From Thermodesulfobacteriota bacterium (lineage in GTDB: Bacteria; Desulfobacterota_D; UBA1144; Nemesobacterales; UBA2774): DNA of 64,000 nucleotides. The notes under the pieces were generated by a model, which saw only the letters and a program-made list of their open reading frames with translations, did no database searches and was not told where the DNA came from. The position numbers and the translations under genes are program-made. Below, one piece after another: positions 1,419 to 51,787 of this stretch; the stretch's first letter is position 1; the number at the start of each line of letters is the position of its first letter. Where the stretch lies: contig OY729416.1 in the NCBI GenBank assembly GCA_963422265.1, forward strand, positions 1,192,196-1,256,195, in the 5' to 3' direction.

Positions 1419-2006
1419 TCATGCCTTCTTCATAAGCCTGAGGGATTCCCTAAGAGCTACTTCTATATCCTTTTCCTTTGACGTTATCGTTTCAATCTGC
1501 GAGATATGCACATCAATTTCAGGTCTTTTATATCCGAGATTCATCAACGCCGATATTACATCCTCAATAATACCCGCCTCGCTTTCAGCCTTCGCATCAG
1601 GCTCAAACCTAGAGAACTTACCCTTAAGCTCGGTCACGAGCCTAGAGGCTAGCCTCGAGCCTATTCCGGGAATCTTCCTTCCCTCAAGATCCCCTGAGCA
1701 TACAGCCCGGGCAAGGTCACCGGGAGCGACGTTTGAAAGGATACTCACCGCCAATTTAGGACCAACCCCCGAAACCCCTATAAGCAGAGAAAAGACTTCC
1801 CGCTCATCATCGTTAAGAAAGCCGAAAAGCTCAATACTACTCTCTTTCACGTTCGTTTGTATTTTTAACTCCGTTTCACTTCCCAGTTCCGGGAGTAGGT
1901 AGTAGGTAGAAAGGGGGACAGTTACGCCGTATCCAACTCCACCTACGTCTATAATTACTTTTCGGAGTGATTTATAGGCAATTCTGCCTCTAAGAAGGGA
2001 AATCAT
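1419..2006 (-). CDS. ruvA: Holliday junction DNA helicase subunit RuvA
   Basis: MISLLRGRI...VGGVGYGV N-terminus typical of RuvA; 195 aa; sits between ruvC and ruvB. Confidence 0.9.
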   Translation of the reverse strand: MISLLRGRIAYKSLRKVIIDVGGVGYGVTVPLSTYYLLPELGSETELKIQTNVKESSIELFGFLNDDEREVFSLLIGVSGVGPKLAVSILSNVAPGDLARAVCSGDLEGRKIPGIGSRLASRLVTELKGKFSRFEPDAKAESEAGIIEDVISALMNLGYKRPEIDVHISQIETITSKEKDIEVALRESLRLMKKA

Positions 2007-2535
2007 CTAGTCTAAAGCGCCTCATTCTTCTCCTTGTTTGAACAAACTCTTTTCCCAGCTTTCTCTCAATTTGGGAAAGGTTAATATGACAAAGCGCAAC
2101 AGCAACTGCATCCGAGGCGTCCTCCGTTTCAAATTCCGATATCCCGAGAATAGCGGATATCATACTTTGCACTTCGCTTTTATTCGCTCTACCTCTTCCG
2201 GTAAGGGCAAGCTTAACTCTTGTGGGGGAATACTCGTGAATTGAAATCCCAGATTTAGACGCAGCCAGAAGCGCAACGCCCCTCGCCTCCCCGAGCTTTA
2301 TAGCACTCTTTGCGTTTTTTGCGAAGAATATATCCTCAATAGACATAGCACCGGGAGCATAGTCGACTATTAACTTTATTAGGTTCTCGTAAATGACTCG
2401 CAATTTCTGATATAAAGGCAGATCCGCCTTAGGAATAATAGCCCCGTTAGCAATATGAGAGATTTCTCCATTACGGGTCTCGAGAACCCCGTAACCGCAA
2501 ACCCTTGAACCGGGGTCTATCCCAATTACCTTCAT
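1990..2535 (-). CDS. ruvC: Crossover junction endodeoxyribonuclease RuvC
   Basis: [18 protein letters not shown]-terminus (RNase H-like RuvC fold); 181 aa; overlaps the ruvA start by 17 bp. Confidence 0.9.
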
Positions 2536-3281
2536 TGCGTAAGGTTTTCTATTACTTCTTCTGGAACGTCAAAGTTAGAATACACATGCTGAACGTCGTC
2601 ACTGTCCTCAAGCGCTTCCATAAGACGGATCATGTGCTCAGCTTCTTTTCCCTCTACTTTGACACTATTCTGAGGAATCATAGTAACCTCTGCCGAGTCG
2701 TATTTTAGACCCGATTCTTGTATTGCGCTTTTAACGTCTTCTATGATCTCCGGCGGCGTTATAACAACGACCTCATCGTCCCCCGTCGCCACGTCTTCGG
2801 CACCAGCTTCAAGAGCCACTTCAAATACGCTGTCTTCATCAACGCTTGCTTCTTCAAAAGCGATCCTGCCCTTCATGTCAAATATCCATGCAACGCATCC
2901 ATTCTCACCTAAATTGCCACCGTGCTTTGTAAAAATCTTTCTTATATCCGCCACTGTCCGGTTTTTATTATCTGTAAGCGCCCTTACTAATACCGCGCTT
3001 CCTCCGGGACCGTAGCCTTCATAAGAAAGCTCGTAAAACTCATCTCCACCTATTTCCCTGGTCCCGCGCTTTACCGCCCTATCTATAGTATCATTGGGCA
3101 TATTATTGCCTTTAGCAGCAGTTATAGCCGTTCTTAATCGGGGATTCGTTTCAACATCTCCCCCACCCTGCTTAGCAGCTACAGTAAGTTCACGAATCAA
3201 CTTTGTAAAAACTTTACCCCGTTTTGCGTCAACTGCGGCTTTTCTATGCTTTATATTCGCCCATTTTGAATGTCCCGCCAT
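2532..3281 (-). CDS. yebC: YebC/PmpR family DNA-binding transcriptional regulator
   Basis: [15 protein letters not shown] signature start; 249 aa; classic position immediately upstream of ruvC. Confidence 0.9.
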
Positions 3282-3601
3282 AACAACTTAACCTCGCTTT
3301 TTAAGTACTCATTAATATTTGCATTGCTTTTTCAGTACTCATCCAAATTATATTGAAATTGTAAAGCATCTAGTGAGAATTAGCAAGCACCTAAAACCTC
3401 TGAAACTAATCAAATTCTTCAATTTCTAAAAACTTACTTGACAAAATATAAATCTAGCGTAGATAATAGTCCTGTATATATTAACTTTCATAAGCAACTC
3501 AGAGAAACTATCCCTTAGAGCATTATCGTTCATTTCCAAATTCGTTAAGCGATATTTGTTTGTATGGTAATCCTAAAATAATTAACCGAGGAACTTAGTT
3601 T

Positions 3602-8501: not shown

Positions 8502-11174
8502 CTAGTTGCCTATAGAATTGAGCAATTCAGATTTGATTCTTTGTATTGTCTCGCTATCCTTGATTTTTTTACCTTTCATATCGGTTACGTAAAACCCGTC
8601 CACAACCTGATCTACCTTTGTAGATATCTTTGCATACTGCGTGGAAAGGCCGAGCTTCGTTATAGACTTGGTTATATCGTATAGAAGTCCACCTCTATCA
8701 TATGTGTAGACGTCAATAATAGTAGCCTTGTCCGAAGATTCATTATCTATCTCCACACGCGTAGGATAACGAGGTATAAACTTGCGATATTGGGAACCCC
8801 CCTTTTTCCTTTTAGCAACAAGTTTTTCTACTTCTATCTTGCCAACTAGAATCTCCCGCATATTACTTCTTAACTTGTCCCACACAGGGTCCTGCTCCTC
8901 AGCCATCTCGCCTAACCTATTTACGTAGAAAACATCTAATATCCTTCCGTCGTCCCTGGTTGTTATCCTAGCACCTAGAATGTTCAATCCACTTGCCCTT
9001 ATTACACCGCAGAGCTGTGAAAAAATCCCTGGCTCATCAAACCCCCAGAAGGTAAACTCGTTATACTGCTCCCTAGAATAGTATAAAACGTTCATTCCTA
9101 TTCCATCTTTGGACTCCTCAATTATACCAACGTGGTAAGCGATTTTGCGGGGAGAAAATCCCAAAAAGTAGGAAGTGGGCATATTCCTTAGGGCGGCGCG
9201 TATCTTTTTCTCGGGTATTTGTCCATCAGCAGCTTGGACTACGCTCCGGGTCACCCTCTTCTTCGTATCTTCAGGAGTTTCTTTCTTAAATTCTCCCCTT
9301 TCAAGAACCTTAGCAGTCCTTACGAAGAGCTCCTTTAATAACATTGCCTTCCAATTATTCCAAACGTTGGGTCCAACGGATTTAATATCGGCGAAGGTTA
9401 AAAGATAAAGCAAGGAAAGCATCTCCAGAGTCTTAACGGATCGTGCGAACCTCAGTATCAAGCTATAATCGTGTATGTCTCGCCTCTGTGAAAAGTGAGA
9501 CATAACCATGTGATGTTTAACCAACAATTCAAGCTGTTCGCCTTCTTTCTGAGATAGTTCCAACGTTCTAGAAAGCTTAGGAATCATGGCAGCTCCCTTC
9601 AGGGCGTGATTTCGCCCCTCGCCCTTACCCATATCGTGAAATAGACAGGCGAGATATAGAACGTGCCTATTCATAAGGGATTCAGCCGTCTTAGTTAACA
9701 GTGGAAGTTCCTTCTCGTATTTATAACTCAGCAAGTTTTCAATCTCCTTTATCATCATAATTGAATGGACGTCCACCGTATAAACGTGATAAGCGTCGTG
9801 CTGCACCATGCAAACTATCTTACCAAATTCAGGAATATAAGAACCCAAAAGTCTAAGCCTATTCATTTCAAATAGTGAGTTCGCTACGTTCTTTCCCGTT
9901 TTAAGGAGTCTCAGAAAAGAGGCGTTAAGTTCTGGATCAGATATAACCTTCTCATCTATAGTAATTCTAACAATCTCGTCCCTTATAAGCCCTTCCAGAT
10001 AATTACTCATACGAACCCCATGCCTATTGGCATATTCAAAAGCGCGCATTAGATTCGATGGCTTTTCTCCAAAGGCAGCAGGACTAGTAACCGAGAGCAC
10101 CCCGCTTTGAATTATAAAACCATGTTGTAGTAACGTTTTCTTAGAAGTCTTAATAGTCGCCCTAGTGTCTTCAGTGCACTTCTCTATCAACCTTTTTGAT
10201 CTCTCTCTGACGTCGTTTGCCCTTAGATAATAACTTCTCATAAACATTTCGATTGCGAGACGCTTAGTGTTCGAAAAACCGAGAAACTTTGCGAGCTCTT
10301 CCTGAAGTTCAAAAGTTAGTCTGTCCTCACGCCTCCCTGCTAGGTAGTGAAGCTCTGAGCGAACAAGGAGAAGAAAGCCAAGATCCTCTTCAAATCCCCT
10401 AAGTTCTTCTTCAACTAACACCCCCTTAGAGGTCAGCTCCGCAAAGCTCTTTACCTTATACTTGGCTTGTGCAATCCAGAGGGCTGAATTTATATCTCTA
10501 AGACCACCTTCCCCTTCTTTAACGTTAGGCTCTAGCAGATAAATTGACCCTCCGAACTTGCTAAGCCTATTCTCATTCTCTTTTATTTTACGCCGAATAA
10601 ACTTAGCCGAGACTGAAGGCAACAAATCACGGAAGAGCTTATCGTCAAAGAGCAAATACAAATTCCTATCCCCGTAAATAAACCTGCCGTCGAGAAGCGA
10701 CGTCAGTATAGTGGTATCATCGCTATCCTCGCTAGAAAGCTCCATACACTCATCTATTGTTCTAACCGAGTGTCCGACGTCAAGATTTAGATCCCAAAGT
10801 AGGTAAAGCAGTTTTTCAGTAACGTGTTTTGCGAGAGTTTTATTGCGCTTCTTGTAAAGGAACATCAAATCTATATCAGAATAAGGACATAATTCCCTTC
10901 TCCCATAACCTCCGAGTGCTAGTATAGAGATATTTTTAATGTCCCTGAAACCGAGTTGAGTTAACGCTTGCCAAATGAGTCTATCAATAATGTCAGACTG
11001 CATTTTCGCAAGGATTCTGCCCGAAAGAGCTCTTTCATGTTTAGCTTGTTTATTATGAATCTTTCTAAGCCCGTCTCGCTTACGAATAAGCCTTTGTTTA
11101 ATCTGTTCACTCAAGCTATTTTGATCAAGCGCTAAACTGTCGGATTTCTTCATCTTACCTCCACTATCCCGCAA
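8502..11174 (-). CDS. glnD: Bifunctional [protein-PII] uridylyltransferase/uridylyl-removing enzyme GlnD
   Basis: 890 aa with a nucleotidyltransferase domain, an HD domain (HD...H motifs) and two C-terminal ACT domains. Confidence 0.9.
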   Translation of the reverse strand: MRDSGGKMKKSDSLALDQNSLSEQIKQRLIRKRDGLRKIHNKQAKHERALSGRILAKMQSDIIDRLIWQALTQLGFRDIKNISILALGGYGRRELCPYSDIDLMFLYKKRNKTLAKHVTEKLLYLLWDLNLDVGHSVRTIDECMELSSEDSDDTTILTSLLDGRFIYGDRNLYLLFDDKLFRDLLPSVSAKFIRRKIKENENRLSKFGGSIYLLEPNVKEGEGGLRDINSALWIAQAKYKVKSFAELTSKGVLVEEELRGFEEDLGFLLLVRSELHYLAGRREDRLTFELQEELAKFLGFSNTKRLAIEMFMRSYYLRANDVRERSKRLIEKCTEDTRATIKTSKKTLLQHGFIIQSGVLSVTSPAAFGEKPSNLMRAFEYANRHGVRMSNYLEGLIRDEIVRITIDEKVISDPELNASFLRLLKTGKNVANSLFEMNRLRLLGSYIPEFGKIVCMVQHDAYHVYTVDVHSIMMIKEIENLLSYKYEKELPLLTKTAESLMNRHVLYLACLFHDMGKGEGRNHALKGAAMIPKLSRTLELSQKEGEQLELLVKHHMVMSHFSQRRDIHDYSLILRFARSVKTLEMLSLLYLLTFADIKSVGPNVWNNWKAMLLKELFVRTAKVLERGEFKKETPEDTKKRVTRSVVQAADGQIPEKKIRAALRNMPTSYFLGFSPRKIAYHVGIIEESKDGIGMNVLYYSREQYNEFTFWGFDEPGIFSQLCGVIRASGLNILGARITTRDDGRILDVFYVNRLGEMAEEQDPVWDKLRSNMREILVGKIEVEKLVAKRKKGGSQYRKFIPRYPTRVEIDNESSDKATIIDVYTYDRGGLLYDITKSITKLGLSTQYAKISTKVDQVVDGFYVTDMKGKKIKDSETIQRIKSELLNSIGN

Positions 11175-11252
11175 CAGGAGCGTGCCGAAGCAGTTTCATG
11201 ATTAAGCATATATGCAGGATAGACTACAGGACAAGTTCTGGAGCAATCCATT

Positions 11253-11849
11253 CTACAATTTTATGCTAACTGAAACCCCATCTCTAATAGGTATAATTGT
11301 TGTGTAAAAGCCCTCGTGAGACATAATAAGACGCGTAAACTCCCTAATCCCTTCACTGGATTCTGACTTGTCACTGGTTAGCACCCTTCCGCTCCATAGT
11401 AGATTATCTGTAATAAGAAGCCCCCCTTTTTGCAGTATGCGATAAGACTCGTCAACTACACTAGGATAAAGCTCTTTATCTATATCGTTGAAAATAATAT
11501 CAAATCGCTCTTCAGCACACTCCAAAAAAAATAAGGCGTCACCTTCATAAACGTCAACCCTTTCCCTAACGCCCATCCTTGTGAGAAACTCATTTGCGAG
11601 TTTTATATTATCGCTAGAATACTCCGTTATATAAACTCTCCCACTATCGCCTATAGCCTTGGCGAACCAATAAGCCGAATAGCCAAATCCTGATCCTAGC
11701 TCTAAAACCTTCTTAGCCCCTGCGATTTTTGTGATCTGATATAAGAATCGTCCTACAAGCGGCCCTATTATCGGAAATTCATTCTCCTCCGCCCATTTTT
11801 CCATCCCCAATAGAGCATCGTCCCTACTAGTATCGCCAAGGCTTTGCAA
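11253..11849 (-). CDS. Class I SAM-dependent O-methyltransferase (caffeoyl-CoA OMT-like, COG4122)
   Basis: VLELGSGFGYSAYW SAM-binding motif I; about 198 aa, typical of O-methyltransferase family 3. Confidence 0.75.
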   Translation of the reverse strand: MQSLGDTSRDDALLGMEKWAEENEFPIIGPLVGRFLYQITKIAGAKKVLELGSGFGYSAYWFAKAIGDSGRVYITEYSSDNIKLANEFLTRMGVRERVDVYEGDALFFLECAEERFDIIFNDIDKELYPSVVDESYRILQKGGLLITDNLLWSGRVLTSDKSESSEGIREFTRLIMSHEGFYTTIIPIRDGVSVSIKL

Positions 11850-11884
11850 ATACGCCTCTACCTTAGGATTTACAATATAAGTAT

Positions 11885-12469
11885 TTATAGCTCCGTTGAC
11901 CCCTTAGGACTATTAAACTTAACGAACGTCTCTTCAAACCCGCTAGTCCGATTTTGCCCCCTGGCTAGGATAAATAAAAGATCTGAGAGGCGATTTAAGT
12001 ACACGGGAACATTACTGCTAACGCCCTCTCCTTTTTCTTCCACGAGTTCTACTACTTTTCTCTCGGCTCTCCTACATACAGTCCTTGCTAAATGGAGACA
12101 GGAACCTCCGGGAGTGCCGCTCGGAAGTATGAACTCTTTAAGAGGCTCAAGTTCTTCGAGGAATCTATCCATTATAGACTCAAGCCTTGTCACAGCTTCT
12201 TTGGTAATTCTAGGAACATTCACATCGGGAGGGCTTGCGAGATCCGCTCCAACGATGAATAGATCATTCTGAATTTGAGCTAATAAGTCATTAATCTCGC
12301 CATCATTAAGCAGAGACCGAGCCATCCCTAATACTGCATTTAACTCATCTACCTCACCGTAGGCATGCACCCTCAATGAAGCTTTGCTAACCCTTGAACC
12401 TCCAACGAGCGAGGTCTGTCCTTTATCGCCTGTTTTGGTATATACCTTAGTAATTCTCTTCTTTTCCAC
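11885..12469 (-). CDS. ATP:cob(I)alamin adenosyltransferase, PduO-type
   Basis: TKTGDKGQTSL...HAYGEVDELNA N-terminal signature of the PduO/MMAB family; 194 aa. Confidence 0.8.
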   Translation of the reverse strand: MEKKRITKVYTKTGDKGQTSLVGGSRVSKASLRVHAYGEVDELNAVLGMARSLLNDGEINDLLAQIQNDLFIVGADLASPPDVNVPRITKEAVTRLESIMDRFLEELEPLKEFILPSGTPGGSCLHLARTVCRRAERKVVELVEEKGEGVSSNVPVYLNRLSDLLFILARGQNRTSGFEETFVKFNSPKGSTEL

Positions 12470-12841
12470 TCTAAAATTCTAACCGAAGGGCAAATGTGGT
12501 TCAATTTTAAGAAAAGATGTAAGCGGGTCACGCCTTATTACAGTAAAGGCAAAGGACTAACTCAGGTAACGAGACATACAGCTCATTCTGAAAAAATCCA
12601 ATACTTTCAATTGATTCCAATCTAGATTCTACATAAAATTACGTAAAAAGGATACAACCAAATAATTGTTCATGCCTCAAAGTCTATATAAAACAGACGA
12701 AAGCTTGTTGGAAAAATGGCCATCGGGGCTATTGGAACTAAAAAAGTATTTGTAGATTTAGCCAAGCAGGGTCATAGCCCTATAGAATTAGAACGTGGAT
12801 CCACAGGTTTCAAAATATGAAAAACAAGAAAAATCAAACGT

Positions 12842-13417
12842 TTGAGAGTACCAGACATTCTATGCGTAAATTCTGGACTACGAGTAGAATCCAGAGCAAA
12901 AACTAGTATGACCATTTCTATATCACACTCAGAAGTAAGCCCTACACGTGGATGGAATTATGGATTAACAGATGATGATTACACGGCATTAGTTTTCTGT
13001 AGTCGCACCGGAGAAAAACCAATTGACTGGCAAGCCGACAACCTAGTTCAATATATAAAAGTATCTGATCTAAGAACCGCGTATAAAAGCAACAGAGTAA
13101 TAATAGAAAAGCCAAAAGGGTCTCAAGAAGGTTTTGAAACTAGGATTACATGGACTTACGCTGTAGCCAGCAGTGATGGCAAAGTTACTAATATAGATAA
13201 AAACAGAATACAATTTAGAAGAAAGACAGATAGCAGAATCATCACATTGCAATTGACAAGGAATTCTATTCACATAGAACCAATTGTTACAATTGGTGAA
13301 AACATACAGAAAAACAAAATTCTGACATCAGTTACTAAAGTAAGTTTAGCCGTTCCTATTAAAAGTATTGGGCGAATCTTTCTATGTGTACCTGTTCAAC
13401 AGCAATTCTGCAGATAG
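12842..13417 (+). CDS. Hypothetical protein; the same reading frame is open from an ATG at 12716 except for one in-frame TGA at 12818-12820
   Basis: 191-aa ORF with no recognisable domain; the frame continuity with 12716-12817 was read directly from the sequence. Confidence 0.4.
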   Translation: MRVPDILCVNSGLRVESRAKTSMTISISHSEVSPTRGWNYGLTDDDYTALVFCSRTGEKPIDWQADNLVQYIKVSDLRTAYKSNRVIIEKPKGSQEGFETRITWTYAVASSDGKVTNIDKNRIQFRRKTDSRIITLQLTRNSIHIEPIVTIGENIQKNKILTSVTKVSLAVPIKSIGRIFLCVPVQQQFCR

Positions 13418-14140
13418 GTACACAGCAGCAAAAGCACTATCCTTTTCTCAATTAACAGAACACACGAAGGATATTCTAGTTGACAGAATCAAAGATGAGA
13501 GTGAATACATATACGTCCGCCTAGAAGTTGCTTCTACTCTCGCAAGATTAGGGCTAAAAGAGGGTTTCACATATATAGAAAAGATATTACAAAACGACTA
13601 TCTAGCATATAAACTTGAAGCGATTATTATCCTAGGATAAATAAAAGAAAAAAGGTCCGCTGAATTACTTATATCCATATTAAATGATTCAAAGGAACAT
13701 CCCGACATTCGTGGAGGAGAGCCGCGTGGTCCCTTGGCAAACTCAATCAGAAACACACTGTAAAAGCACTAGTAACCGCATTTAATTCAAGACATAACAA
13801 AGTTCAAATTGAAGATGCTAGAGCATTATCCCGATTACACGATAATTACACACCTAATGTGCTTGGTTATTTTGCCAACACATCTGAAACTGAAAGACCT
13901 GGTATTTCTTGGGCTCTTAGCAAAACGGAAAATGGAGGCTAGACGACTTGTTAAAACACACTCCTCCTGATGATTTTGATGCTAGGCAATGGGCGGCATA
14001 TATAATTGGAACAAATGACCAAAAAAAAGTTATGAATGAGATAGAAAAGATAAAAAGCCACGACCCAGAATTATACTTTGCCGTCACGCTACTATGGAGA
14101 ATTTTATCAAGTTGTATCTATGGGCTAGAGCAGTATTGAT
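13368..14140 (+). pseudogene. HEAT/PBS-lyase-like repeat protein, disrupted by frameshifts
   Basis: Repeated [L..LL..L.D....VR..AA.ALG] units (DIRGG...A-SLGKL, VASTLARLGLKEG) are spread over at least three reading frames. Confidence 0.45.
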
Positions 14141-14162
14141 CTATTGAGATAGCATAAAATTA

Positions 14163-14953
14163 TTGTACAAAACCAAATTCGGTAAAGCCTTTGTCGGTGA
14201 TTTTCTTCTATTAATGAAAGAATTAGAATCCGTAGATTTAGTCATAACTTCACCGCCATTCGCACTTCAAAAAAAAAGAATATGGGAATAAGGATCAAAA
14301 TGTTTATGTAGAGTGGCTACTAGTCTATTGTAAAGAAATAAAAAGGATTTTGAAAAAGACAGGAAGTTTAGTAATTGATTTATAGGGGGGGGGCGTATAA
14401 AAAAAGAGACCAGTTCGTTCTCTGTACAATTTCAGAGTGCTAATCAGGATGTGTGATGAGTGTGGATTCAATCTTGCAGAAGAATTTTATTGGTACAATC
14501 TAGCTAAGTATTACAAGCCGAGAAAAAGACCATCCGGACACGACATTTCAAAAGGCTTCTATAACGGCGGTAAGGGAGCAATTCCATCTAATTTACTTCA
14601 AATTCCAAATACAGAAAGCAATACAAAATACTTAAAATTGTGCGAAGAATTTAATGCAAAGAAACATCCTGCGCGCTTTCCTATTGAATTGCCTGAATTG
14701 CCAACTTTTTTTATAGATTTCTTGACAGATCCTGGCGATCTAATTCTTGATGTATTTGCAGGCTCTAATACCACTGGACAGGCATTTGAGTTAAAAAAAG
14801 AATTGGATTGCATGTGAGTTGGATTACGAATACTTAGCATCATCTGCCCTAAGATTGTTTCATGAGCCTATCACAAAACACCATAAGAACATTTTCCTAA
14901 GACTATTAGATAAAAAAGCTGGATTTACCAGACCTTGCAAATTATCATTTTGA
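14163..14953 (+). pseudogene. Beta-class DNA methyltransferase (SPPF motif, probably N4-cytosine) with three or more frameshifts, all in homopolymer tracts
   Basis: Motif IV DLVITSPPF near the N-terminus, then RPVRSLYNFRVLIRMCDECGF, HPARFP, motif I DVFAGSNTTG and C-terminal KNWIACELDYEY, in four different frames. Frame changes fall at A9 (14271-14279), G9/A7 (14385-14405) and A7 (14796-14802). Confidence 0.7.
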
Positions 14954-15088
14954 AAATGAAGTTGATCAAAAGAAATTATATTTTACGTAGATTATTTCTC
15001 ATTAAATCTTATAGGCAGCAGAATATTATACGCCTCACCATAAGGATTTCTACCAACTTGTAAATGGAACAGTTTTAGGGAAAGAACA

Positions 15089-15877
15089 TCAACCCCTGAG
15101 AAAATCTAGAACCAAGTCGTCAACCTCTTGATGCTTCTCTCTCCAAAAACCATGACCTACGTCTTTGAATATCTTCAACTTAGAATCAGGAATTAATTCG
15201 CAAAGCTCATAAGAGCGTTTCGGCGACGCTATAAGATCGTTTTCTCCAGACATAACAAGCGTGGAAGCTTTTATTCTATTCAGCAAATCAGAGGTATTAT
15301 GCCCTTCACAGGCAAGGCTCTGACTTATGTATCCCTTTAACGCCTGAGGTTTCTCGGGAATAGAATCCGCCGCCGCCTTTATACTGCCGAGATTTCTTTC
15401 TATATACTCCCTAGTATATCCAAAATATAGAGCCATAAGCCACACCGTTTTCATACCTGCCTTTGAAGCTATCTCACGTCCAATCCTGAGAATTTCGTTA
15501 CCGACTTCATCCCTTGAAGCCGAGGAGCATCCCAACACAAGCTTTCGCACCTTGTCTGGATACTTAATCGCAAGCCACTGTCCTATCATGCCACCCATAG
15601 ACTTACCAACGATATGAGCGGACTCTAATCCTAACGAATCCATCAGACCCGCGGTATCATCAGCCATATCCTGCGTGGAAAATGGGGCACCTGGTTTATC
15701 AGACCTACCCGATCCACGGTTATCAAAAAGGACAACTTTGAAATGCTTTGAGTAAATAGGAACCTGAGACGCCCAGCTTTCCAACTGACTTCCAAGCCCG
15801 CTAATCAGAACTAAAGGAAATCCCTCGCCGTGGACCTCATAATTGAGTTTAAAGCCGTTCACGTTTGCGTAAGGCAT
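15089..15877 (-). CDS. Alpha/beta-fold hydrolase
   Basis: Nucleophile elbow GKSMGG and the catalytic-triad layout of an alpha/beta hydrolase; 262 aa. Confidence 0.8.
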   Translation of the reverse strand: MPYANVNGFKLNYEVHGEGFPLVLISGLGSQLESWASQVPIYSKHFKVVLFDNRGSGRSDKPGAPFSTQDMADDTAGLMDSLGLESAHIVGKSMGGMIGQWLAIKYPDKVRKLVLGCSSASRDEVGNEILRIGREIASKAGMKTVWLMALYFGYTREYIERNLGSIKAAADSIPEKPQALKGYISQSLACEGHNTSDLLNRIKASTLVMSGENDLIASPKRSYELCELIPDSKLKIFKDVGHGFWREKHQEVDDLVLDFLRG

Positions 15878-16239
15878 TCTGATTTAGCCCTCCTTGATCC
15901 TAGTTCTAAAGAACCAAAAGCTTTCAGGCATTCTCTGGCAGTCCTAAGTTCCTGTTCAGTGAAGAGATTATTACAAGGGTCCTTTAAGACTAGATCTTCC
16001 ACTGATAAATCAAGACTTCCTAACTCCCATAGCTTTGTAAGACCTTCGGGATACTTCGGTGAGTGAAGCAACCGTCTGGCTGTTTCCACACCACCATCTT
16101 TGTCAACCATCTGTTTGAAACGCGTAGGATTATATGATGGGCACTCGGAACGAGTCCTCCCGTAAAGGTCGAGCATTTCTTCGCGAAAAGCTGATTCTAT
16201 ATTTTCACTCACTTGCGCAAAAGTTACGTGAAATGGCAA
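15859..16239 (-). CDS. Hypothetical protein (126 aa), overlaps the hydrolase start by 19 bp
   Basis: ORF only; no recognisable domain; composition is protein-like. Confidence 0.4.
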   Translation of the reverse strand: MPFHVTFAQVSENIESAFREEMLDLYGRTRSECPSYNPTRFKQMVDKDGGVETARRLLHSPKYPEGLTKLWELGSLDLSVEDLVLKDPCNNLFTEQELRTARECLKAFGSLELGSRRAKSECLTQT

Positions 16240-38840: not shown

Positions 38841-39206
38841 TTAACCATAAAGTTTCCTGATACGGCTTCTGTTTTCCAAATCCTTATCACCCTTAAAATA
38901 TATTTCTACGAGTTCAATTCTTCCCTCTCTTCCAAAGTAGGCATAAATTATTCTGAGCCCCGATTGAACCCCTTTCCCTTTTAAGGACTTAGACGTGAAC
39001 TTTCTGACTTTATATATTTCAGTTTCAGTAATTCCTGAATCGCTGATACGCTTTATGCCCTTGTTGTTTTGACCCATAAGATGAAATGGATTTAACTGGT
39101 AATTAATAAAGGTTTGCAGGTCTTCTTCAAGAGTTTTGACTTTTCTTAGCAGCTTTTTAATGTCACTTTTGAACTCCGGTAGCTGTTCAACCCTGATCTT
39201 CTTCAA
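38841..39206 (-). CDS. RelE/ParE-superfamily type II toxin (mRNA-interferase-like)
   Basis: 121 aa; C-terminal GLRIIYAYF...RIELVEIYFKGDKD resembles the RelE/ParE core; overlaps the upstream antitoxin gene by 20 bp. Confidence 0.6.
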   Translation of the reverse strand: MKKIRVEQLPEFKSDIKKLLRKVKTLEEDLQTFINYQLNPFHLMGQNNKGIKRISDSGITETEIYKVRKFTSKSLKGKGVQSGLRIIYAYFGREGRIELVEIYFKGDKDLENRSRIRKLYG

Positions 39207-39978
39207 TATAATTTCTCACTGAGTAGGCGGGAGTTCTGTAAAAAACAGCTTCATAGTCAATTTTCTCTTGATCCTCCGTGCCAAGCCAGGGTATGTCATT
39301 GTGTGAGTATTCGGCGATTTGAGAGGCGTTCATATCCGATAACCTTCCAAGAACGTTATCAATTGTGTTAAGCTCGTTTGCATTTAGGGCTGAAAGATCG
39401 GGGTTACGCAAGGGAAGATATTTTGTCTGGCTGTAACTAAAATGCCTGTTTTTCACTTTGACTACATCTTTGTTTTCTATCATATCTCCTATAATTTTTA
39501 TAAACTCAGCTGGTGTTGGACCAAATTTACTCCTGATGTAATTCGCTCCAACCAACTGTTCTTCGTGCTTCTCGTAGTAGTCAAAGTCAATAAAGTAAAG
39601 CATCTTTTGTATAACGGTTTCACCCACGTTTGGCTTTGCGCCCACTTTGTTGAGAATATACAAAAGCACTTCTTTGAACTTGATGAGATTCTTTTGAGGA
39701 ACGCTTATTCTCAAAGTCTCTTTCTTAGGCTTGGCTTCCCTACTCTTTTTAACAATGATCTCAACGCTTTCCTTATTGTTCACCAGGGCATCAATAGAGC
39801 ATTCAAAAAGCTCAGATAGCTTGTTTATCTCGTCTAATTTCGGCATTCGGACGCCGTTTTCAATATTTGATACAATCTCCCTGCTCGTACCAATAGCCTT
39901 AGCCAATTCTGCTTGGGAAAGTTCGGCACTTTGTCTTAACTGTTTTATCTTTTTGCCTAACTCTTTAGATTGAATCAT
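39187..39978 (-). CDS. HTH-XRE plus DUF4065 (Panacea/SocA-like) domain antitoxin
   Basis: Helix-turn-helix LSQAELAKAIGTSREIVSNIENG; DUF4065-like IQKMLYFIDFDYY...GANYIRSKFGPTP; start taken at the MIQSKELGKK Met (the ORF extends further, to 40092). Confidence 0.7.
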   Translation of the reverse strand: MIQSKELGKKIKQLRQSAELSQAELAKAIGTSREIVSNIENGVRMPKLDEINKLSELFECSIDALVNNKESVEIIVKKSREAKPKKETLRISVPQKNLIKFKEVLLYILNKVGAKPNVGETVIQKMLYFIDFDYYEKHEEQLVGANYIRSKFGPTPAEFIKIIGDMIENKDVVKVKNRHFSYSQTKYLPLRNPDLSALNANELNTIDNVLGRLSDMNASQIAEYSHNDIPWLGTEDQEKIDYEAVFYRTPAYSVRNYIEEDQG

Positions 39979-40176
39979 GGTTAGTGGGTTTGCCAAACTA
40001 TTTTGATATTTATTGTAATTATTGTAATATTTTATTACGAGAGTTGTAAAACTTTGTTGCATTTTTGTATTGTTGATGTGTATGTTATGCACTTAATCTT
40101 ATGTTTGGATCAAACTCCAGATAAGTGAGCAATAACTGATTTTACGTTTGTAGAAAGTGGCTAGAATCTTAGCCGT

Positions 40177-40338
40177 GATACCCAGAAAATCTTACCAAAC
40201 TTAAAAGATATTGGAGACAAGTCTGCCCATAGCCGAAGATTTAACGCTCACAGGCAGGATATTGAAAAATTACTTCCAGATATTCGGGTGTGCACGCAAG
40301 AGCTTATTTATCTTGCAGGTTTTCAAAATGGTCAATAA
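40177..40338 (+). pseudogene. Possible DUF4145-like C-terminal fragment (remnant)
   Basis: LKDIGDKSAHSRRF...IEKLLPDI...ELIYLAGF resembles the (L/I)RN.GNK.AH helix of DUF4145 domains found in RM and Abi proteins; short and unanchored. Confidence 0.25.
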
Positions 40339-40389
40339 ATCTTGCTAATTACCAGACCTTTCTATAAATTGTAAAGTTGTCTAACAATC

Positions 40390-40596
40390 CTAATCAAACC
40401 CCACCACATCCTCCTCAACCCCCAAATAAACCTCATCAATCCTTTCTTGAATCCTGATTGCCTTTTTGATTGCGGTTACAATTTTGCAGTAGTGTTTTAT
40501 ATCGTCTAAAGATAAATGTCTTCTTTTCCTGTACTTTAGCCATTTACTGCAAACCTGATAGCCGCCGATTCGGTATTCATAAACTTCTTGACTCAC
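40390..40596 (-). pseudogene. C-terminal remnant of a large type IIG/ISP-like restriction-modification enzyme
   Basis: YRIGGYQVCSKWLKYRKRRHLSLDDIKHYCKIVTAIKKAIRIQERID matches the conserved C-terminal tail of large SAM-dependent RM fusion enzymes; an in-frame stop lies 3 codons upstream, so only about 68 aa remain. Confidence 0.5.
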
Positions 40597-40627
40597 ACCT
40601 TCAAAATTACGAACACTTCAATTCTAA

Positions 40628-41524
40628 TTGTTTCCTACTTTTGTTAAACAAGGTATCAGTAGTAGGGTTGAACTAGTAGGCAGTATTTGCTATGCTAACA
40701 AGGTAATGAGGCCGGTAGAAACAGAAAAATGTATACGGCAGATTGTCCGTAGCTCCGTTGAGGCGTACGCAGATGGTTTTGAAACTCGCCACGTTAGAGA
40801 AGTAGACGATCTAGACGGAACTATTAACATGAAAATTCATAACGTCTTTATTGCAGCATTAGGTAAGGAGGTCCAATATTATACAGCGCTTGTGCGCTCT
40901 CTTGATAGCTCATTAGGAAATATGTTGGAGAGGATGGCAATAAACATTGCGAAGCTCTTCTATGAAGTAAATAAAAACGTAGAAGGTCCGTTAGCTGTTG
41001 AACAAACGTCAAAAATCGCGGAATTGCTTGAAGGATATAAAAATAGAAATAACCCTTTAGTCTCAAGCATATCTCATTACAAACAAATTAGAGATATAGG
41101 AATCACGTCAGACTCAGCAACGAAAGTCCACGTGAGCGATTACTATTTGATAGACAAAGAAACAAACGAACATTACTTGATTGAATTAAAGATTGGTGGA
41201 GACTTGGACAATAAAAAAGCTCGTTCGGAGAAGGAAGCGATTTTCGAACAGTATGCAATACTCTCAAATAAATTGGGTAAGAATGCAAGTATAAAATGTT
41301 ACTTTGCTACAGCTTATAATAGATTTGGAGAAGGTAAAGAGTGGAAACAATCGAGAGTCTTGCAATTCTTTTCAAAAGATGAACTCCTTATCGGGAAAGA
41401 CTTTTGGAACTTCGTATGCTGTAGTGAAAAGGGTTATGACATTGTGATTGATGAATACAAAGAGTCAGCGCATTTAGTAAAATCAGCATTGCGCAACATC
41501 AAAGAGACGTATTTATATGGATAA
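40628..41524 (+). CDS. Putative type II restriction endonuclease (PD-(D/E)xK)
   Basis: D...ELK motif (VSDYYLIDKETNEHYLIELKIGG); no other domain found; 8-bp overlap with the downstream methyltransferase gene. Confidence 0.45.
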   Translation: MFPTFVKQGISSRVELVGSICYANKVMRPVETEKCIRQIVRSSVEAYADGFETRHVREVDDLDGTINMKIHNVFIAALGKEVQYYTALVRSLDSSLGNMLERMAINIAKLFYEVNKNVEGPLAVEQTSKIAELLEGYKNRNNPLVSSISHYKQIRDIGITSDSATKVHVSDYYLIDKETNEHYLIELKIGGDLDNKKARSEKEAIFEQYAILSNKLGKNASIKCYFATAYNRFGEGKEWKQSRVLQFFSKDELLIGKDFWNFVCCSEKGYDIVIDEYKESAHLVKSALRNIKETYLYG

Positions 41525-42257
41525 AAAATATCAAATTGTAAATGCTGATAGTAAAGAGTACTTAAAGGGGCTACCTAATAACTCTATCGACTTCATTCTA
41601 ACTGATCCCCCTTACAATATAAGTCAATATTCAACTGGCAATATAAAGTTTGGCTGGCGAGCAGACATTAACAACGATCTGGCTGAATGGGATAAAAAGT
41701 TTTCCCCCCTGGATTTTAGAGATGAGTTCTTAAGAGTCTTAAAACCTACAGGGAATATCTTTGCTTTTTGCTCCTATAATATAATTGGCAAATGGCATGA
41801 AGTATTTGATCCTGTTTTCGATACGTTTCAGTTTTTCGTGTGGCATAAAAAGAATCCCGTTCCAAAATTTCGGAAAGCCGGCTTCTTAAATAGCTGTGAA
41901 CTCGTAGTATGTATGTGGAATAAAGGACACACTTGGAACTTTGGCAAACAAAATGAGATGCACAATTTCTTTGAAAGTCCAATCTGCATGGGACCAGAAA
42001 GATTAAAAAAACCGAAGCACCCTACGCAAAAGCCAGTAGGGCTATTAAAACACTTTATCAAAATAGCTTCAAATGAAGACGATACTATATTAGACCCTTT
42101 TATGGGAGTTGGCTCCACTGGCGTTGCCTCTTTAAGAATGAAAAGGAAATTTATAGGAGTAGAAATAGATAAAGAATACTATGATGCTGCTCAAGAAAGA
42201 CTAGATTCCATTCCGACGGATTTGTTTTCAAGAGTGTCTGCTATTGCAAAGACGTGA
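41517..42257 (+). CDS. Beta-class DNA methyltransferase (N6-adenine or N4-cytosine; DPPY motif IV, then FMGVGST motif I)
   Basis: ILTDPPYN near the N-terminus and DPFMGVGSTGVA...FIGVEID at the C-terminus; 246 aa. Confidence 0.85.
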   Translation: MDKKYQIVNADSKEYLKGLPNNSIDFILTDPPYNISQYSTGNIKFGWRADINNDLAEWDKKFSPLDFRDEFLRVLKPTGNIFAFCSYNIIGKWHEVFDPVFDTFQFFVWHKKNPVPKFRKAGFLNSCELVVCMWNKGHTWNFGKQNEMHNFFESPICMGPERLKKPKHPTQKPVGLLKHFIKIASNEDDTILDPFMGVGSTGVASLRMKRKFIGVEIDKEYYDAAQERLDSIPTDLFSRVSAIAKT

Positions 42258-45340: not shown

Positions 45341-45566
45341 GTCTTTATGATGGCTCAATTTGTAAAATATCTATACTATTAGAGATTCAAAAATCCATAA
45401 CTCCGTAGGGAACGCATATATCCTTCTCAATAAAGTTGATAATTAGTAGAGTTTCCGTTAGCTTAGCTGTTATTGAGAAACAGAGCCTAAACTGATATAT
45501 ACCTTTAGACAACGCAGGTTTAACGGCGATTCATTTAAGAGTAAAGAATAAGGGGGGGGAAGCGCT

Positions 45567-47270
45567 TTGAAAAAAAAATCCAACAAAGATGAAAACGGCA
45601 ATCCTAGAAAATATTCCTCTATAGTTGTTGAGGGGATAAATAGAGCGCCGAACAGATCTATGTTAAGAGCGGTTGGGTTTAAGGACAAAGATTTCAAAAA
45701 GTCAGTCGTGGGGATTGCTTCTACCTGGAGTATGGTTACTCCCTGCAACATGCACATAGACAAGCTTGCCCTGCAAGCGGGTCAGGGAGTTGATAAGTCA
45801 GGTGGCAAATCAATTGTTTTTAATACTATTACAGTGTCCGACGGTATTTCAATGGGCACTCCTGGCATGAGGTACTCACTAGTTTCAAGAGAGGTAATAG
45901 CCGATTCAATTGAGACAGTAGCCGCCGCCGAGGGATTTGACGGGCTCATTTCCATTGGAGGATGCGATAAAAATATGCCGGGATGCCTGATGGCGATGTG
46001 CAGGCTTAACCGTCCTTCTGTGTTCGTATATGGAGGGACTATCATGCCCGGAAACTATCAAGGTAAATCTATAGACGTAGTTTCGGTTTTCGAAGCCGTC
46101 GGGGCATACGCCAATAAAGATATTTCAGAAAATCAGCTAAAAGCAATTGAATCCAGCGCTATACCGGGACCAGGTTCATGCGGCGGCATGTACACCGCCA
46201 ATACTATGGCATCCGCAATAGAAGCGCTCGGAATGAGCTTGCCCAACAGCTCCGCCCAGATTGCAATATCCTCAGAGAAAATAAACGACTGCACAAGCGC
46301 TGGCGCCGCCGTTATGAATTTAATTAAAAACAACATCAAGCCTAGCGACATCATGACAAGGAAAGCGTTTGAAAACGCCATAACGGTCGTAATAGCCTTG
46401 GGTGGTTCTACTAACGCAGTCCTTCATTTGCTGGCAATAGCCAGCGCCGCTAACGTAAAACTCACAATTGACGACTTTACCCGAATTGGCAAGAAATCCC
46501 CCGTTCTTGCTGACCTAAAACCGAGCGGAAGATACATGATGGCTGATTTTTGCGAAATTGGTGGAATTACTCCACTATTAAAAATGCTTCTTCAGTCGGG
46601 TCTATTGCATGGCGACTGCATGACCGTAACTGGTAAAACGGTCGAAGAAAACTTAGAATCAGTGCGCTCCTACCCAAAGGGACAGAAGATTGTCACACCC
46701 ATAAAAAAGCCTCTTAAAAAAGATAGCCACATCTTAATATTGAGGGGAAATCTAGCACTGGAGGGGGCTGTAGCAAAAATTACTGGGCAAGAAGGGTTTT
46801 CCTTTACGGGAAAAGCTATAGTCTTTAATTCAGAAGAGCAGTGCTTAAAAGCCATACTGGAAGGCAGAGTAAAAAGGGGACACGTTATAGTTGTTCGCTA
46901 TGAAGGACCTAGGGGAGGACCTGGTATGCGGGAGATGCTTGCCCCCACCTCCGCTATAATGGGTAAGGGATTGGGTAATGACGTAGCTCTTATTACAGAT
47001 GGTAGATTCTCAGGTGGAACGCATGGTTTTGCAGTTGGTCACATTACGCCGGAAGCGATAGATGGCGGAGTTATTGCAATCGTAAAAAATGGGGACGTTA
47101 TTACTATTGACGCCGTAAAACGTGAAATTAGCCTACAGGTTTCTGAATCAGAGATTGACAAGAGGTTGGATCTATGGAAAAAGCCAAAACCAAGAGAGAA
47201 GAGCGGGGCGCTTGCCAAATACGCTAGGCTCGTTTCGTCAGCCTCACTTGGAGCAGTGACCGATAAATGA
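45567..47270 (+). CDS. ilvD: Dihydroxy-acid dehydratase (TTG start as annotated; start uncertain)
   Basis: CDKNMPG cluster motif and the ILVD/EDD family pattern; 567 aa. Confidence 0.93.
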
Positions 47271-48975: not shown

Positions 48976-49140
48976 ACCCCTATTCCTATAGTTGACCGTT
49001 ATAATCATTCCCAGCTTGCCTAGTATTGAAAAAAGACTTTCAACAATAACCATGCGATATTAACGCGATCTTAACATTATTGTGGCATATATGTTAAGGG
49101 AAAAACAACAATCTTATTAGGAGTAAGTAGGAGTAATAGA

Positions 49141-49737
49141 ATGAATACAGAAATGCTTAAAGCCCCATTAATCTATAACCAATTTAAAACTCTCATTGCG
49201 ACATCGAAGACGTTATATAAATACCGGGAGCGAAGCTGAATTGGCATCGTTGAGAAGCGACATAGCGTCTCTCAAGCTAGAAATTGATAGTGCTTTAGAA
49301 GACATTAACAACGGAGACGACGCAAATTATTTAACTGCTCTAAAGCTGATACTTCTAATCATCCAGAAATTTACTCAGTCCATTCAGCTAATGAGCAACT
49401 TGAAATTCAGAGAACCTTTATGCCAGGGATTTGACCCGCAACAAATGCTTGACATCCTGCTTCCTAATATTAAAAATCTAATAGATTACGAAAATTGGAC
49501 AAACAAACCTAAACACGAAGAAATTAAAGCAAGATTATCTCCTAACAGAATCCCTTGAGGATCAATATAGAAGGGTTCTTCTTACTTACCTGATTCAGAA
49601 GTGGCACAACATAGATGAAGTATTGAACTTATTGAAAATCAGGGAATTATACAAAAAAATCGCGGAGGAGCTAGTAATCTTCTCCGTTTTATCAGGCTAC
49701 TTGCAAAACATAAATACCAGTAAACAGGAAATGCCTG
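49141..49737 (+). pseudogene. Hypothetical gene split across three frames (two frameshifts)
   Basis: Protein-like segments MNTEMLKAPLIYNQFKTLIA / GSEAELASLRSDIASLKLEID... / LEDQYRRVLLTYLIQKWHNIDEVL follow one another in different frames. Confidence 0.35.
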
Positions 49738-49739
49738 AG

Positions 49740-50726
49740 TCATCTTAAACTGTAAAGAATATCCTCTACTATATCGTCTATATTGTTCCCATAGTCGGCT
49801 TTATATATAAAAGATGACTCAACCCATTTACTTAAAATTTCAACAAAATCGCCCCCAATTTTTCTTACGACTGGGACACCTAACCTTTTCAAAGCTTCAG
49901 CGTTACACTCCTGTTCGTATTGCCTCTTCATAGGAATTACCATTAGCTTTTTCCTCATATAAATCGCTTCAGAAGGCGTTTCAAAGCCCGCGTTACATAG
50001 TATTCCTTCGCAAGTAGAAAGGCTTCTCACAAATTCGCGGTTTCCAACGGGACAAACAGTAACGTTGTCCTCTGAATAAGGTTCTTGCTTATGGTGTTTT
50101 GAGAATACCTCCCAGCGAACGTCCACGTTCTTTAGCAAGCTGCACAAAAATCTTTCATCATAGGAGGGTAAATACACAGTGTAATGACCATTATTTCGCA
50201 CGGGTGCATTCCTGATTTCCTCTCTTATAATGGGCTTATGAATAAAACCATCATATCTCTCAAAGTGCAGTCCTATCGATCTTGAACCGGGGGCGTACCA
50301 CTTTATTATTAGCTCTTGAAAGTGATTAACGTTAGTTGGCCTCGGAATTTTAGTAGATAAGAAAGCCGCCTGATGCGATATGGCTAGGCTAGGCATACCT
50401 TTGGCTTTCGCCGCCCATGCCGTTATAGGTTCAAAATCAGTTAATACCAAATCATATTTATCTATAGGCAGTTTGTATATGTCAGAAATTAACCTATATG
50501 GGCTAAAGCTTTTTATAGACTTCCAGTAATCAATCCCACCCCTTTTACCAAATATAAATCCAAGCCCGTCAAGTCTGTAGTTAGCCTGAAAGCCAAGGTC
50601 TACTTCATGGTGAATACCGCTTAAAAGCACATCAACATCAACGTGATTAACAAGGTGTTTTATTAACTCCCTTGACCTGGATATATGTCCATTCCCCGTC
50701 CCCTGAACTCCTAACAAAATCCTCAT
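49740..50726 (-). CDS. Glycosyltransferase (MJ1255/TIGR00661-like; GT1/GT28-type C-terminal domain)
   Basis: MRILLGVQGTGNGHISRS N-terminus typical of this uncharacterised glycosyltransferase family; 328 aa. Confidence 0.65.
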   Translation of the reverse strand: MRILLGVQGTGNGHISRSRELIKHLVNHVDVDVLLSGIHHEVDLGFQANYRLDGLGFIFGKRGGIDYWKSIKSFSPYRLISDIYKLPIDKYDLVLTDFEPITAWAAKAKGMPSLAISHQAAFLSTKIPRPTNVNHFQELIIKWYAPGSRSIGLHFERYDGFIHKPIIREEIRNAPVRNNGHYTVYLPSYDERFLCSLLKNVDVRWEVFSKHHKQEPYSEDNVTVCPVGNREFVRSLSTCEGILCNAGFETPSEAIYMRKKLMVIPMKRQYEQECNAEALKRLGVPVVRKIGGDFVEILSKWVESSFIYKADYGNNIDDIVEDILYSLR

Positions 50727-50973
50727 AATGAAATCAAAGTTAGCATGATACTTTCACGTTATGAAGTAACGGTTAAAAGAGTATTAACTTCTCGTATATT
50801 CTAAGCCTATCAAAACGATAAACAAAAACTTAACGAAGTTTTCACACGGCGTGAATAATATAACTGTATATGAGTTTACCATACATTCACGAGGAGATGA
50901 TGATGCTTTCAAAAACAGCCCTATCCTTAAAAGATACCGTGTCAAACGCTAATATGGTGAAACGGGTGCTCAT

Positions 50974-51656: not shown

Positions 51657-51787
51657 AATCCATTGACGTTAAGTTATCATTTCTCCAAAGAATTAACTTA
51701 GAATCCGTAGTATCGCGTAAGGAGTTAGCCATATCCGCTCATAGCGTTATAAGAGCTGCATACGCTGGCTGAACCAAGAATACACAG

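Follow-up and report, generated by a model that had tools for sequence, protein, structure and literature searches.

The window analysed here is a stretch of 64,000 nucleotides from a Thermodesulfobacteriota bacterium (assembly GCA_963422265.1, contig OY729416.1, positions 1,192,196 to 1,256,195). On its plus strand, between positions 12672 and 14953, it carries two consecutive genes, both of them broken. The first (gene 1) would have encoded a protein of about 488 amino acids in which a PD-(D/E)xK nuclease core was followed by a barrel-sandwich-hybrid domain and, at the C-terminus, by a solenoid of HEAT repeats; we name it here the nuclease-HEAT protein. The second (gene 2) would have encoded an N4-cytosine DNA methyltransferase of the M.PvuII type. 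We hold it very likely that a two-gene cassette for Type II restriction-modification (R-M), acquired horizontally and since inactivated, has left this segment behind. The original prediction, made from the letters of the window alone, had seen in the patch the fossil of a mobile R-M or defence module, and this overall reading holds. It had also counted three disrupted genes: the disruptions are there, but the genes are two, the open reading frame (ORF) at 12716-13417 and the HEAT-repeat pieces that follow being parts of one and the same gene. The features of the two pseudogenes are given below, together with the comparison that places each of them: P0002 is an intact homologue of gene 1, L001 and L005 are loci of intact relatives, L008 is an independent contig, and 1BOO is the structure of M.PvuII.

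12672-14139, plus strand: gene 1, pseudogene of a protein of about 488 amino acids, with a predicted PD-(D/E)xK nuclease at the N-terminus, HEAT repeats at the C-terminus and a barrel-sandwich-hybrid domain between them (homologues, tblastn, fold)
12712-12716, plus strand: frameshift 1, net -1, in an A5 run, between ...SLLEK and MAIGAIGT (same sequence in L008)
12818-12820, plus strand: nonsense TGA where the family has an invariant Trp50 (TGG>TGA; FTIWKT in the family, FKI*KT here; same in L008)
13350-13417, most likely ~13360-13375, plus strand: frameshift 2, within the segment that links the barrel and HEAT domains (same in L008)
13638-13640, plus strand: nonsense TAA in place of the invariant Glu324 (ILGEIK > ILG*IK; P0002 alignment, conservation)
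13719-13720, plus strand: frameshift 3, a 2-nucleotide insertion (GGAGGA-GA-GCC) in IRGG|AAWSLG, not at a homopolymer (P0002 alignment)
13922-13927, plus strand: frameshift 4, net -1, in WALSK|xGKW (P0002 alignment)
14136-14953, plus strand: gene 2, pseudogene of a beta-class N4-cytosine DNA methyltransferase close to M.PvuII (hidden Markov model and 1BOO matches)
14145-14147, plus strand: in-frame TGA, roughly the fourth codon of the methyltransferase, the next possible start being TTG at 14163 (against the L001 N-terminus MSYVSNKLLY)
14269-14277, plus strand: frameshift in an A9 run (FALQKK|KEYGNK; intact-partner comparison)
14383-14412, plus strand: two frame changes that compensate each other, near TA+G9 (14383-14393) and A7 (14399-14405) (intact-partner comparison)
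14506-14511 (~14508), plus strand: site where about 54 codons have been deleted in frame, equivalent to M.PvuII residues ~126-179 (LPSPIEWVNKRKIR...NTVWW...; 1BOO alignment)
14686-14703, plus strand: tandem duplication of 9 nucleotides (GAATTGCCT GAATTGCCA); the protein reads ELPELP against KLPE in homologues (homologue comparison)
14793-14799, plus strand: frameshift in an A7 run (FELKK|NWIAC; intact-partner comparison)

The unity of gene 1 came out of a search of 5.8 billion proteins with the joined query, i.e. the ORF 12716-13417 followed by the HEAT pieces. More than 1000 intact proteins, about 488 amino acids long, matched this query over 100% of its length, at 47-56% identity; they belong to Chloroflexota, Deltaproteobacteria, Eremiobacterota, Bacillota and archaea. 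In the opposite direction, tblastn of P0002 against the window recovered all four frame segments as well as the N-terminus, MPQSLYKTDESLLEK, which begins at the ATG in 12672; the gene stops at the TGA in 14137-14139. As had been noticed, one has to read three frames to recover the whole coding sequence of the HEAT repeats. The ATG at 12716, previously taken as the start of a first gene, is internal: the true start is at 12672, and the frameshift in the A5 run had been overlooked. It had been supposed that the upstream ORFs might be what is left of a partner of the methyltransferase, and this is borne out, since the ORF interrupted by a TGA corresponds to the nuclease with which the HEAT-repeat protein begins. 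By the same token the methyltransferase is not the orphan it was thought to be, since its partner gene lies directly upstream. One could still wish to retain three separate disrupted genes, an unknown ORF, a HEAT-repeat gene and an orphan methyltransferase, on the ground that the 12716-13417 frame stops before the HEAT frame resumes. This is extremely improbable: all 120 best intact homologues have both parts in a single chain of about 488 amino acids, the full-length members among the 399 clusters collected at 50% identity with a profile of the nuclease domain are nearly all 480-530 amino acids long, and the methyltransferase is always accompanied by its nuclease-HEAT partner.

Gene 1 has suffered four frameshifts and two nonsense codons in all. 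Once reconstructed, it is off-family at 10 of 99 invariant columns (two stops and eight missense changes), to be compared with a mean of 0.97 and a maximum of 5 for 40 intact homologues held out from the definition of these columns; selection on the gene has therefore been relaxed. The residues that are candidates for catalysis are nevertheless retained in the window copy. Nor are the pieces chance ORFs, because after reconstruction they match Pfam families at 1.5e-16 (HEAT_2) for gene 1 and 3.6e-30 (N6_N4_Mtase) for gene 2.

The methyltransferase remnant is also recognized by the PADLOC model MTase_II (4.6e-91), and it aligns with 1BOO (E=3.3e-76) over residues 10-129 and 180-313. Its likely original start, which we place by comparison with L001, would overlap the stop of gene 1 (TTGA, 14136-14139). 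A TSPPF motif is found near the N-terminus (~14248-14262) and FAGSNTTG near the C-terminus (~14755-14778), so that motif IV precedes motif I, which is the permutation typical of the beta class. Within 14383-14412 the conserved GGAYKKR is read in the third frame, and a straight reading of this stretch would meet TAG and TAA. Altogether the gene shows four frame changes, an early stop, the deletion of about 54 amino acids and the 9-nucleotide duplication. The original prediction had it losing its frame at least three times, which is correct as a bound; its inventory was too short, however, and missed, over the two genes, the TAA at 13638-13640, the insertion of two nucleotides at 13719-13720, the TGA at 14145-14147, the deletion and the duplication. 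In an intact relative (L005) the partner methyltransferase aligns with residues 10-320 of 1BOO (E=7.8e-133) with 62.5% identity overall and 75% over residues 125-230, and this is no match to a housekeeping family, an outcome that had been put forward as one that would undermine the R-M reading. M.PvuII makes N4-methylcytosine at the central C of CAGCTG (PMC7544214). Judged from the identity over residues 125-230 and from the site avoidance described below, the specificity of the whole methyltransferase clade would be CAGCTG as well.

Are these lesions real? Five of the eight frame changes coincide with mononucleotide runs or adjoin them (A5, A9, G9, A7 and A7), as would be the case if homopolymers had been miscalled, or the assembly had gone wrong, while the genes were intact in the organism. 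Yet the first three lesions are found, identical, in L008, a contig assembled from another sequencing run (ERR11641160) which spans all three and is 99.8% identical to positions 11066-13510 of the window. The difference amounts to four single-nucleotide polymorphisms and one intergenic insertion or deletion, because of which L008 does not come from the same strain. Furthermore, three in-frame stops, the insertion of GA, a deletion of about 160 nucleotides and a 9-nucleotide duplication are not homopolymer errors, and eight missense changes at invariant positions also speak against a faulty assembly. Outside the patch the window is densely coding, with long ORFs, and all of these are intact, including those of genes with A8, G7 or G8 runs, and the biggest ORF-free gap of the window lies inside the patch. 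Assembly error is thus unlikely, and that the stops and frameshifts as a whole would be artefacts, with both genes sound in the cell, has very little probability. Look-ups of exact products gave no match for the hydrolase that follows the patch or for the ORF fragments 14437-14817 and 12842-13417, and only the known contig for 12908-13417.

Real lesions could yet be bypassed. Poly-G and poly-A tracts in R-M genes are a classic switch for phase variation, and slippage at the G9 or A9 tract, or else programmed frameshifting, might be imagined to keep a live system; similarly, the first TGA replaces a tryptophan codon, and tryptophan is precisely the meaning of TGA in some alternative genetic codes. 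Such schemes, including a recoding of TGA as selenocysteine, are barely credible here. No change in a single tract repairs either gene, and at least eight frame changes, three stops and the loss of about 54 conserved residues in the methyltransferase would all have to be circumvented. As for TGA, it ends 17 of the 50 ORFs of the window, that of gene 1 among them, and the codon at 12818-12820 aligns with an invariant tryptophan, whereas positions that hold selenocysteine correspond to cysteine in homologues. We discard on these grounds both a phasevarion-type toggling, which supposes an intact gene controlled by one tract and is ruled out by multiple independent lesions that include stops and a deletion, and a selenocysteine or alternative-code reading, ruled out by the tryptophan alignment and the frequent use of TGA as a stop. 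It had been sound to state that the 12716-13417 frame is open but for this one TGA, and to take the codon for a nonsense mutation in preference to selenocysteine. The two genes are dead, and the locus has no present function.

What the dead pair once did is best approached through its intact relatives. In all three long contigs that carry the 488-amino-acid gene, a methyltransferase gene (331-348 amino acids, N6_N4 family) follows directly on the same strand, while the surroundings are unrelated, a ribosomal protein operon in one case, an integrase-flanked site in another, sugar metabolism genes in the third. Among 80 further metagenome loci, 70 had at least 900 nucleotides of sequence downstream; the methyltransferase was there, directly downstream and on the same strand, in 70 of the 70. 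Most cassettes, that of the window included, have this tandem arrangement, nuclease gene then methyltransferase gene, with the two genes overlapping or abutting, and with neither a controller (C) gene nor its operator, the C-box. In keeping with this C-less form, no PvuII-type C-box was found in the window, even with up to three mismatches, and control by a C protein finds no basis there. Two distant members of the family, picked up with the profile of the nuclease domain, keep a PvuII-like methyltransferase in other arrangements, convergent in the locus L120, divergent in L121.

This last locus, L121, is particularly telling. It holds a PvuII-like methyltransferase gene on the minus strand (440-1549), a controller gene on the plus strand (1717-1968), coding for an 83-amino-acid protein of the HTH_3 family with a DRTY recognition helix, and, immediately after it on the same strand, the nuclease-HEAT gene (1980-3512). 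A C-box, TACT-TAT-AGTC-CGTA-GACT-GTT-AGTC (TACTTATAGTCCGTAGACTGTTAGTC), is present at 1669-1694, 23 nucleotides upstream of the controller gene, and was met in none of 200 shuffled sequences. The C-box of the C.PvuII family reads GACT-N3-AGTC-N4-GACT-N3-AGTC (PMC2175313), and that of L121 is exactly of the PvuII type, down to the conserved central GT and the first half-box, TACT, of wild-type PvuII described in the same paper. In such systems, according to that paper, one transcript carries both the C gene and the restriction endonuclease gene. Because it comes directly after the C gene, the nuclease-HEAT gene of L121 occupies the place of the endonuclease; L121 looks like an otherwise PvuII-like system in which R.PvuII has been replaced. 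No ORF similar to R.PvuII was found in the cassette loci, with a best E of 0.34, though this is a weak control.

Some further observations concern the intact relatives. When 72,556 plasmid and 50,697 phage records were searched by tblastn with an intact homologue, no match was found. One cluster of nuclease-HEAT proteins (P0010, at 90% identity) has copies in metagenome-assembled genomes (MAGs) of Deltaproteobacteria, Candidatus Heimdallarchaeota and Candidatus Helarchaeota, which is either a very recent transfer between domains or contamination in binning. An R-M gene of the MmeI/Eco57I type (Type IIG) adjoins the intact cassette in three loci (L002, 8936-12209; L003, 8936-12205; L004, 3055-4581), and there is a Type IIG gene near the cassette of L001 as well. 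It forms a single ORF of 1089 amino acids in L003, is split into 508 and 567 amino acids in L002, and is represented by the 508-amino-acid piece in L004; the split is possibly a second case of R-M decay, possibly phase variation, possibly a difference between assemblies. Cassette loci of this sort, with their Type IIG genes, look like defence islands.

The N-terminal 236 residues of the partner have no match in the family libraries. They give a confident model of two domains, with a predicted local distance difference test score (pLDDT) of 84.5 and a predicted template modelling score (pTM) of 0.82, and the full-length model is as good (88.4 and 0.84, respectively). In this model the first domain is a PD-(D/E)xK nuclease, with the core alpha-beta-beta-beta-alpha-beta fold, and the invariant residues E41, P61-D62, E73, R75 and K77 appear to fall on the structural elements where they would be expected. 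The second is modelled as a barrel-sandwich-hybrid of the type seen in LytM, biotinyl and RNA polymerase sandwich-barrel hybrid motif (SBHM) domains. The last 250 residues or so are, by sequence and by structure, HEAT repeats of the PBS-lyase type. They strongly resemble the proteins of this group (HEAT_2/HEAT_PBS; alphaRep, CpcE/F, YibA, deoxyhypusine hydroxylase), which, however, are scaffolds or lyases and have no nuclease domain. The nearest likenesses of the core are two minimal PD-(D/E)xK nucleases, Hjc, the archaeal Holliday-junction resolvase, and the homing endonuclease I-Ssp6803I. Sequence identity to these is only 9-20%, and the nuclease-HEAT family differs from both by an insert of about 20 residues modelled at low confidence (residues 43-58), by an ExRxK motif instead of ExK, by its two additional domains, and by a context that is R-M, not recombination or intron homing. 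A profile of the family alignment run against the sequences of the PDB met HEAT and alphaRep proteins only, and no solved structure was found that combines nuclease, barrel and HEAT repeats.

Restriction selects against a site in the genome that harbours it; methylation alone does not. Sites were counted in 267 kilobases of host DNA flanking intact cassettes, the cassettes themselves being removed. Where 94.7 occurrences of CAGCTG would be expected, 8 were observed, which makes a ratio of 0.084, or 12-fold depletion. It is the most depleted of the 64 palindromic hexamers, and the most depleted too of the 2079 hexamers obtained when the two strands are collapsed, the next lowest ratio being 0.29. 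The effect is exact to the base: CAGCTA, CAGCTC, CAGCTT and CAGCGG have ratios of about 1.0 in the same flanks, and AGCT one of 0.83. In 507 kilobases of control loci that have no cassette the ratio of CAGCTG is 0.71 and its rank 22. The window itself, as we shall see, has few such sites, and this residual scarcity is suggestive of past restriction pressure, though on 64 kilobases it does not decide the matter. Palindromic hexamers are generally low there (median observed/expected ratio 0.6), and GGGCCC, CGTACG, TTTAAA and GTATAC are depleted further than CAGCTG, a hint of other R-M pressures, past or present.

Taken with the linkage, the controller context and the nuclease fold, this avoidance leads us to propose the nuclease-HEAT protein as the cassette's restriction endonuclease. 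In intact relatives the methyltransferase would methylate CAGCTG while the nuclease-HEAT protein would cut CAGCTG when unmethylated, and the intact cassette would thus perform the function of PvuII with a restriction enzyme unlike R.PvuII in sequence and in architecture. That the intact protein is an endonuclease specific for CAGCTG seems to us likely; that the window holds a dead two-gene R-M cassette, belonging to the family that unites the nuclease-HEAT protein with an M.PvuII-type methyltransferase, we assert with more confidence still. The locus has the methyltransferase gene of a Type II system and next to it, as we infer, the co-inherited gene of the endonuclease; what it no longer has is both of them intact. 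As to the order of decay, the nuclease gene would have been lost first, or together with the methyltransferase gene, because loss of the methyltransferase ahead of the endonuclease kills the cell.

Several facts weigh against this interpretation. The proposed catalytic motif, ExRxK (E73-x-R75-x-K77), is not canonical, with an invariant arginine where (D/E)xK has its lysine, and a lysine at +4. Neither the N-terminal ORF nor an intact homologue matched any nuclease or restriction endonuclease model in Pfam, NCBIfam, PADLOC or PHROGs. In the window CAGCTG occurs 2 times where about 10 would be expected, which places it at rank 6 of 64 palindromes, on 64 kilobases only. The support of an independent assembly is limited to 11066-13510, and all lesions from 13638 onwards come from a single assembly. 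No terminal direct or inverted repeats beyond chance, no integrase, no tRNA gene and no Rfam element mark an insertion. Finally, we found no paper on the nuclease-HEAT family in the literature, REBASE not being covered, where the family may be listed.

The first two of these points, in particular, can be arranged into another account: the two genes would make a real module, but the nuclease-HEAT protein would serve methylation-associated repair or regulation, or would be a nuclease directed at some other sequence, and would not be the CAGCTG-specific enzyme, the avoidance having some other cause. It is in favour of this account that databases label the protein just as a 'HEAT repeat domain-containing protein' and that, to our knowledge, HEAT repeats do not occur in characterised restriction enzymes. 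We nonetheless find it unlikely. It has to face a strict linkage maintained across three gene arrangements, the place it takes in L121 right behind a C gene of the PvuII type whose C-box is perfect, a PD-(D/E)xK fold with invariant acidic and basic residues, the failure to find an R.PvuII-like ORF in the cassette loci, and a 12-fold depletion of one exact site in the hosts and not in controls, a selection that methylation by itself does not exert.

The cassettes, in which the nuclease-HEAT protein would be the endonuclease, should be seen against the background of the PvuII system (M.PvuII, C.PvuII, R.PvuII). They share with it the methyltransferase, which is closely homologous to M.PvuII over its full length and recognizable even in the window remnant, and hosts that avoid exactly its site; L121 shares in addition the divergent methyltransferase gene, the DRTY controller gene and the consensus C-box. 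They differ in that most of them are tandem cassettes devoid of C gene and C-box, and the window copy is dead. The nuclease-HEAT protein does not belong to the family of R.PvuII, an enzyme of 157 amino acids from which it differs in size and architecture and to which it has no sequence match. With pseudogenised R-M systems in general the window locus has in common the joint decay of both genes, an island of low guanine-plus-cytosine (GC) content, a variable site of insertion and a residual avoidance of the recognition site. Its decay is ordinary, a common fate of such selfish modules.

The family, by contrast with the relic, which is minor, is where the value of this analysis mainly lies: it is large, comes from environmental genomes only, and is hidden under the HEAT-repeat label. 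All sources call the protein 'HEAT repeat domain-containing protein' or 'hypothetical protein'. It is apparently uncharacterised, and apparently represents Type II R-M with a new architecture of endonuclease. In its widest form the proposal would be that of a widespread family of bacterial and archaeal restriction endonucleases (about 400 clusters at 50% identity) that cut CAGCTG, are unrelated to R.PvuII, combine a minimal, Hjc-like PD-(D/E)xK core with a barrel-sandwich domain and a HEAT solenoid, and have replaced R.PvuII in at least one lineage; in this complete form we lean towards it, by a modest step beyond even chances. If true, the HEAT solenoid would be a new module for DNA recognition, dimerisation or control in a restriction enzyme, and HEAT repeats would make a new domain architecture among Type II enzymes. 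We would also have an endonuclease replaced by a non-homologous one inside a conserved framework of methyltransferase and controller, and the annotation of hundreds of genes would have to be corrected.

We now come to the surroundings of the dead cassette. A composition scan of the window gives a GC content of 0.32-0.38 across ~12500-15050, against 0.42-0.49 in both flanks. To the left lies a gene for a PduO-type cob(I)alamin adenosyltransferase (11885-12469, minus strand), to the right an alpha/beta hydrolase gene (15089-15877, minus strand). The original prediction had spoken of an AT-rich stretch between the PduO and hydrolase genes, and the GC profile and the neighbouring genes confirm it. 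A three-frame translation of the patch yields a series of short ORFs on the same strand, and two spacers complete it.

12470-12671, no strand assigned: AT-rich spacer from the PduO gene, which is divergent, to gene 1 of the cassette (onset of the GC trough)
14954-15088, no strand assigned: AT-rich spacer to the convergent hydrolase gene (end of the GC trough)

There is no ORF within 12470-12671, and it is probably here that the promoter of the cassette was located. The spacer contains one sigma-70-like match (12611-12639, plus strand), which is a match to the consensus only, and a scan of the patch for promoters and terminators gave nothing beyond weak consensus matches of this kind.

The PduO protein of the window is 62-70% identical to PduO in MAGs of Candidatus Dadabacteria, and the genome stands close to this group. 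In the closest relative, L009, the gene order RuvX-hydrolase-[gap]-PduO-OMT-GlnD is kept, without the cassette: the gap between PduO and hydrolase (8628-9850 in L009, to be compared with 12470-15088 in the window) is filled by genes for a thioredoxin and for a Lon N-terminal-domain protein, both absent from the whole 64 kilobases of the window. Because other genes occupy the gap of L009, and in view of the GC trough, the PduO/hydrolase junction is a variable site and the low-GC cassette an acquisition.

Some minor observations come from elsewhere in the window. An ORF of 126 amino acids (15859-16239, minus strand) lies between the hydrolase and RuvX genes and overlaps the start of the hydrolase gene by 19 nucleotides; it has no match in Pfam, NCBIfam or PHROGs, and is missing in L009, where RuvX and hydrolase adjoin. 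It may be a second small insertion beside the cassette. The whole 64 kilobases contain no tRNA gene, and no Rfam family at gathering threshold. Two other stretches have a low GC content (0.36-0.39), at about 39000-42000 and 49000-52000, a composition like that of the cassette. Lastly, a G8 and an A9 run stand 10 nucleotides apart at 45552-45578, upstream of or at the start of the ORF 45567-47270, and this pair could be a regulatory tract prone to slippage.

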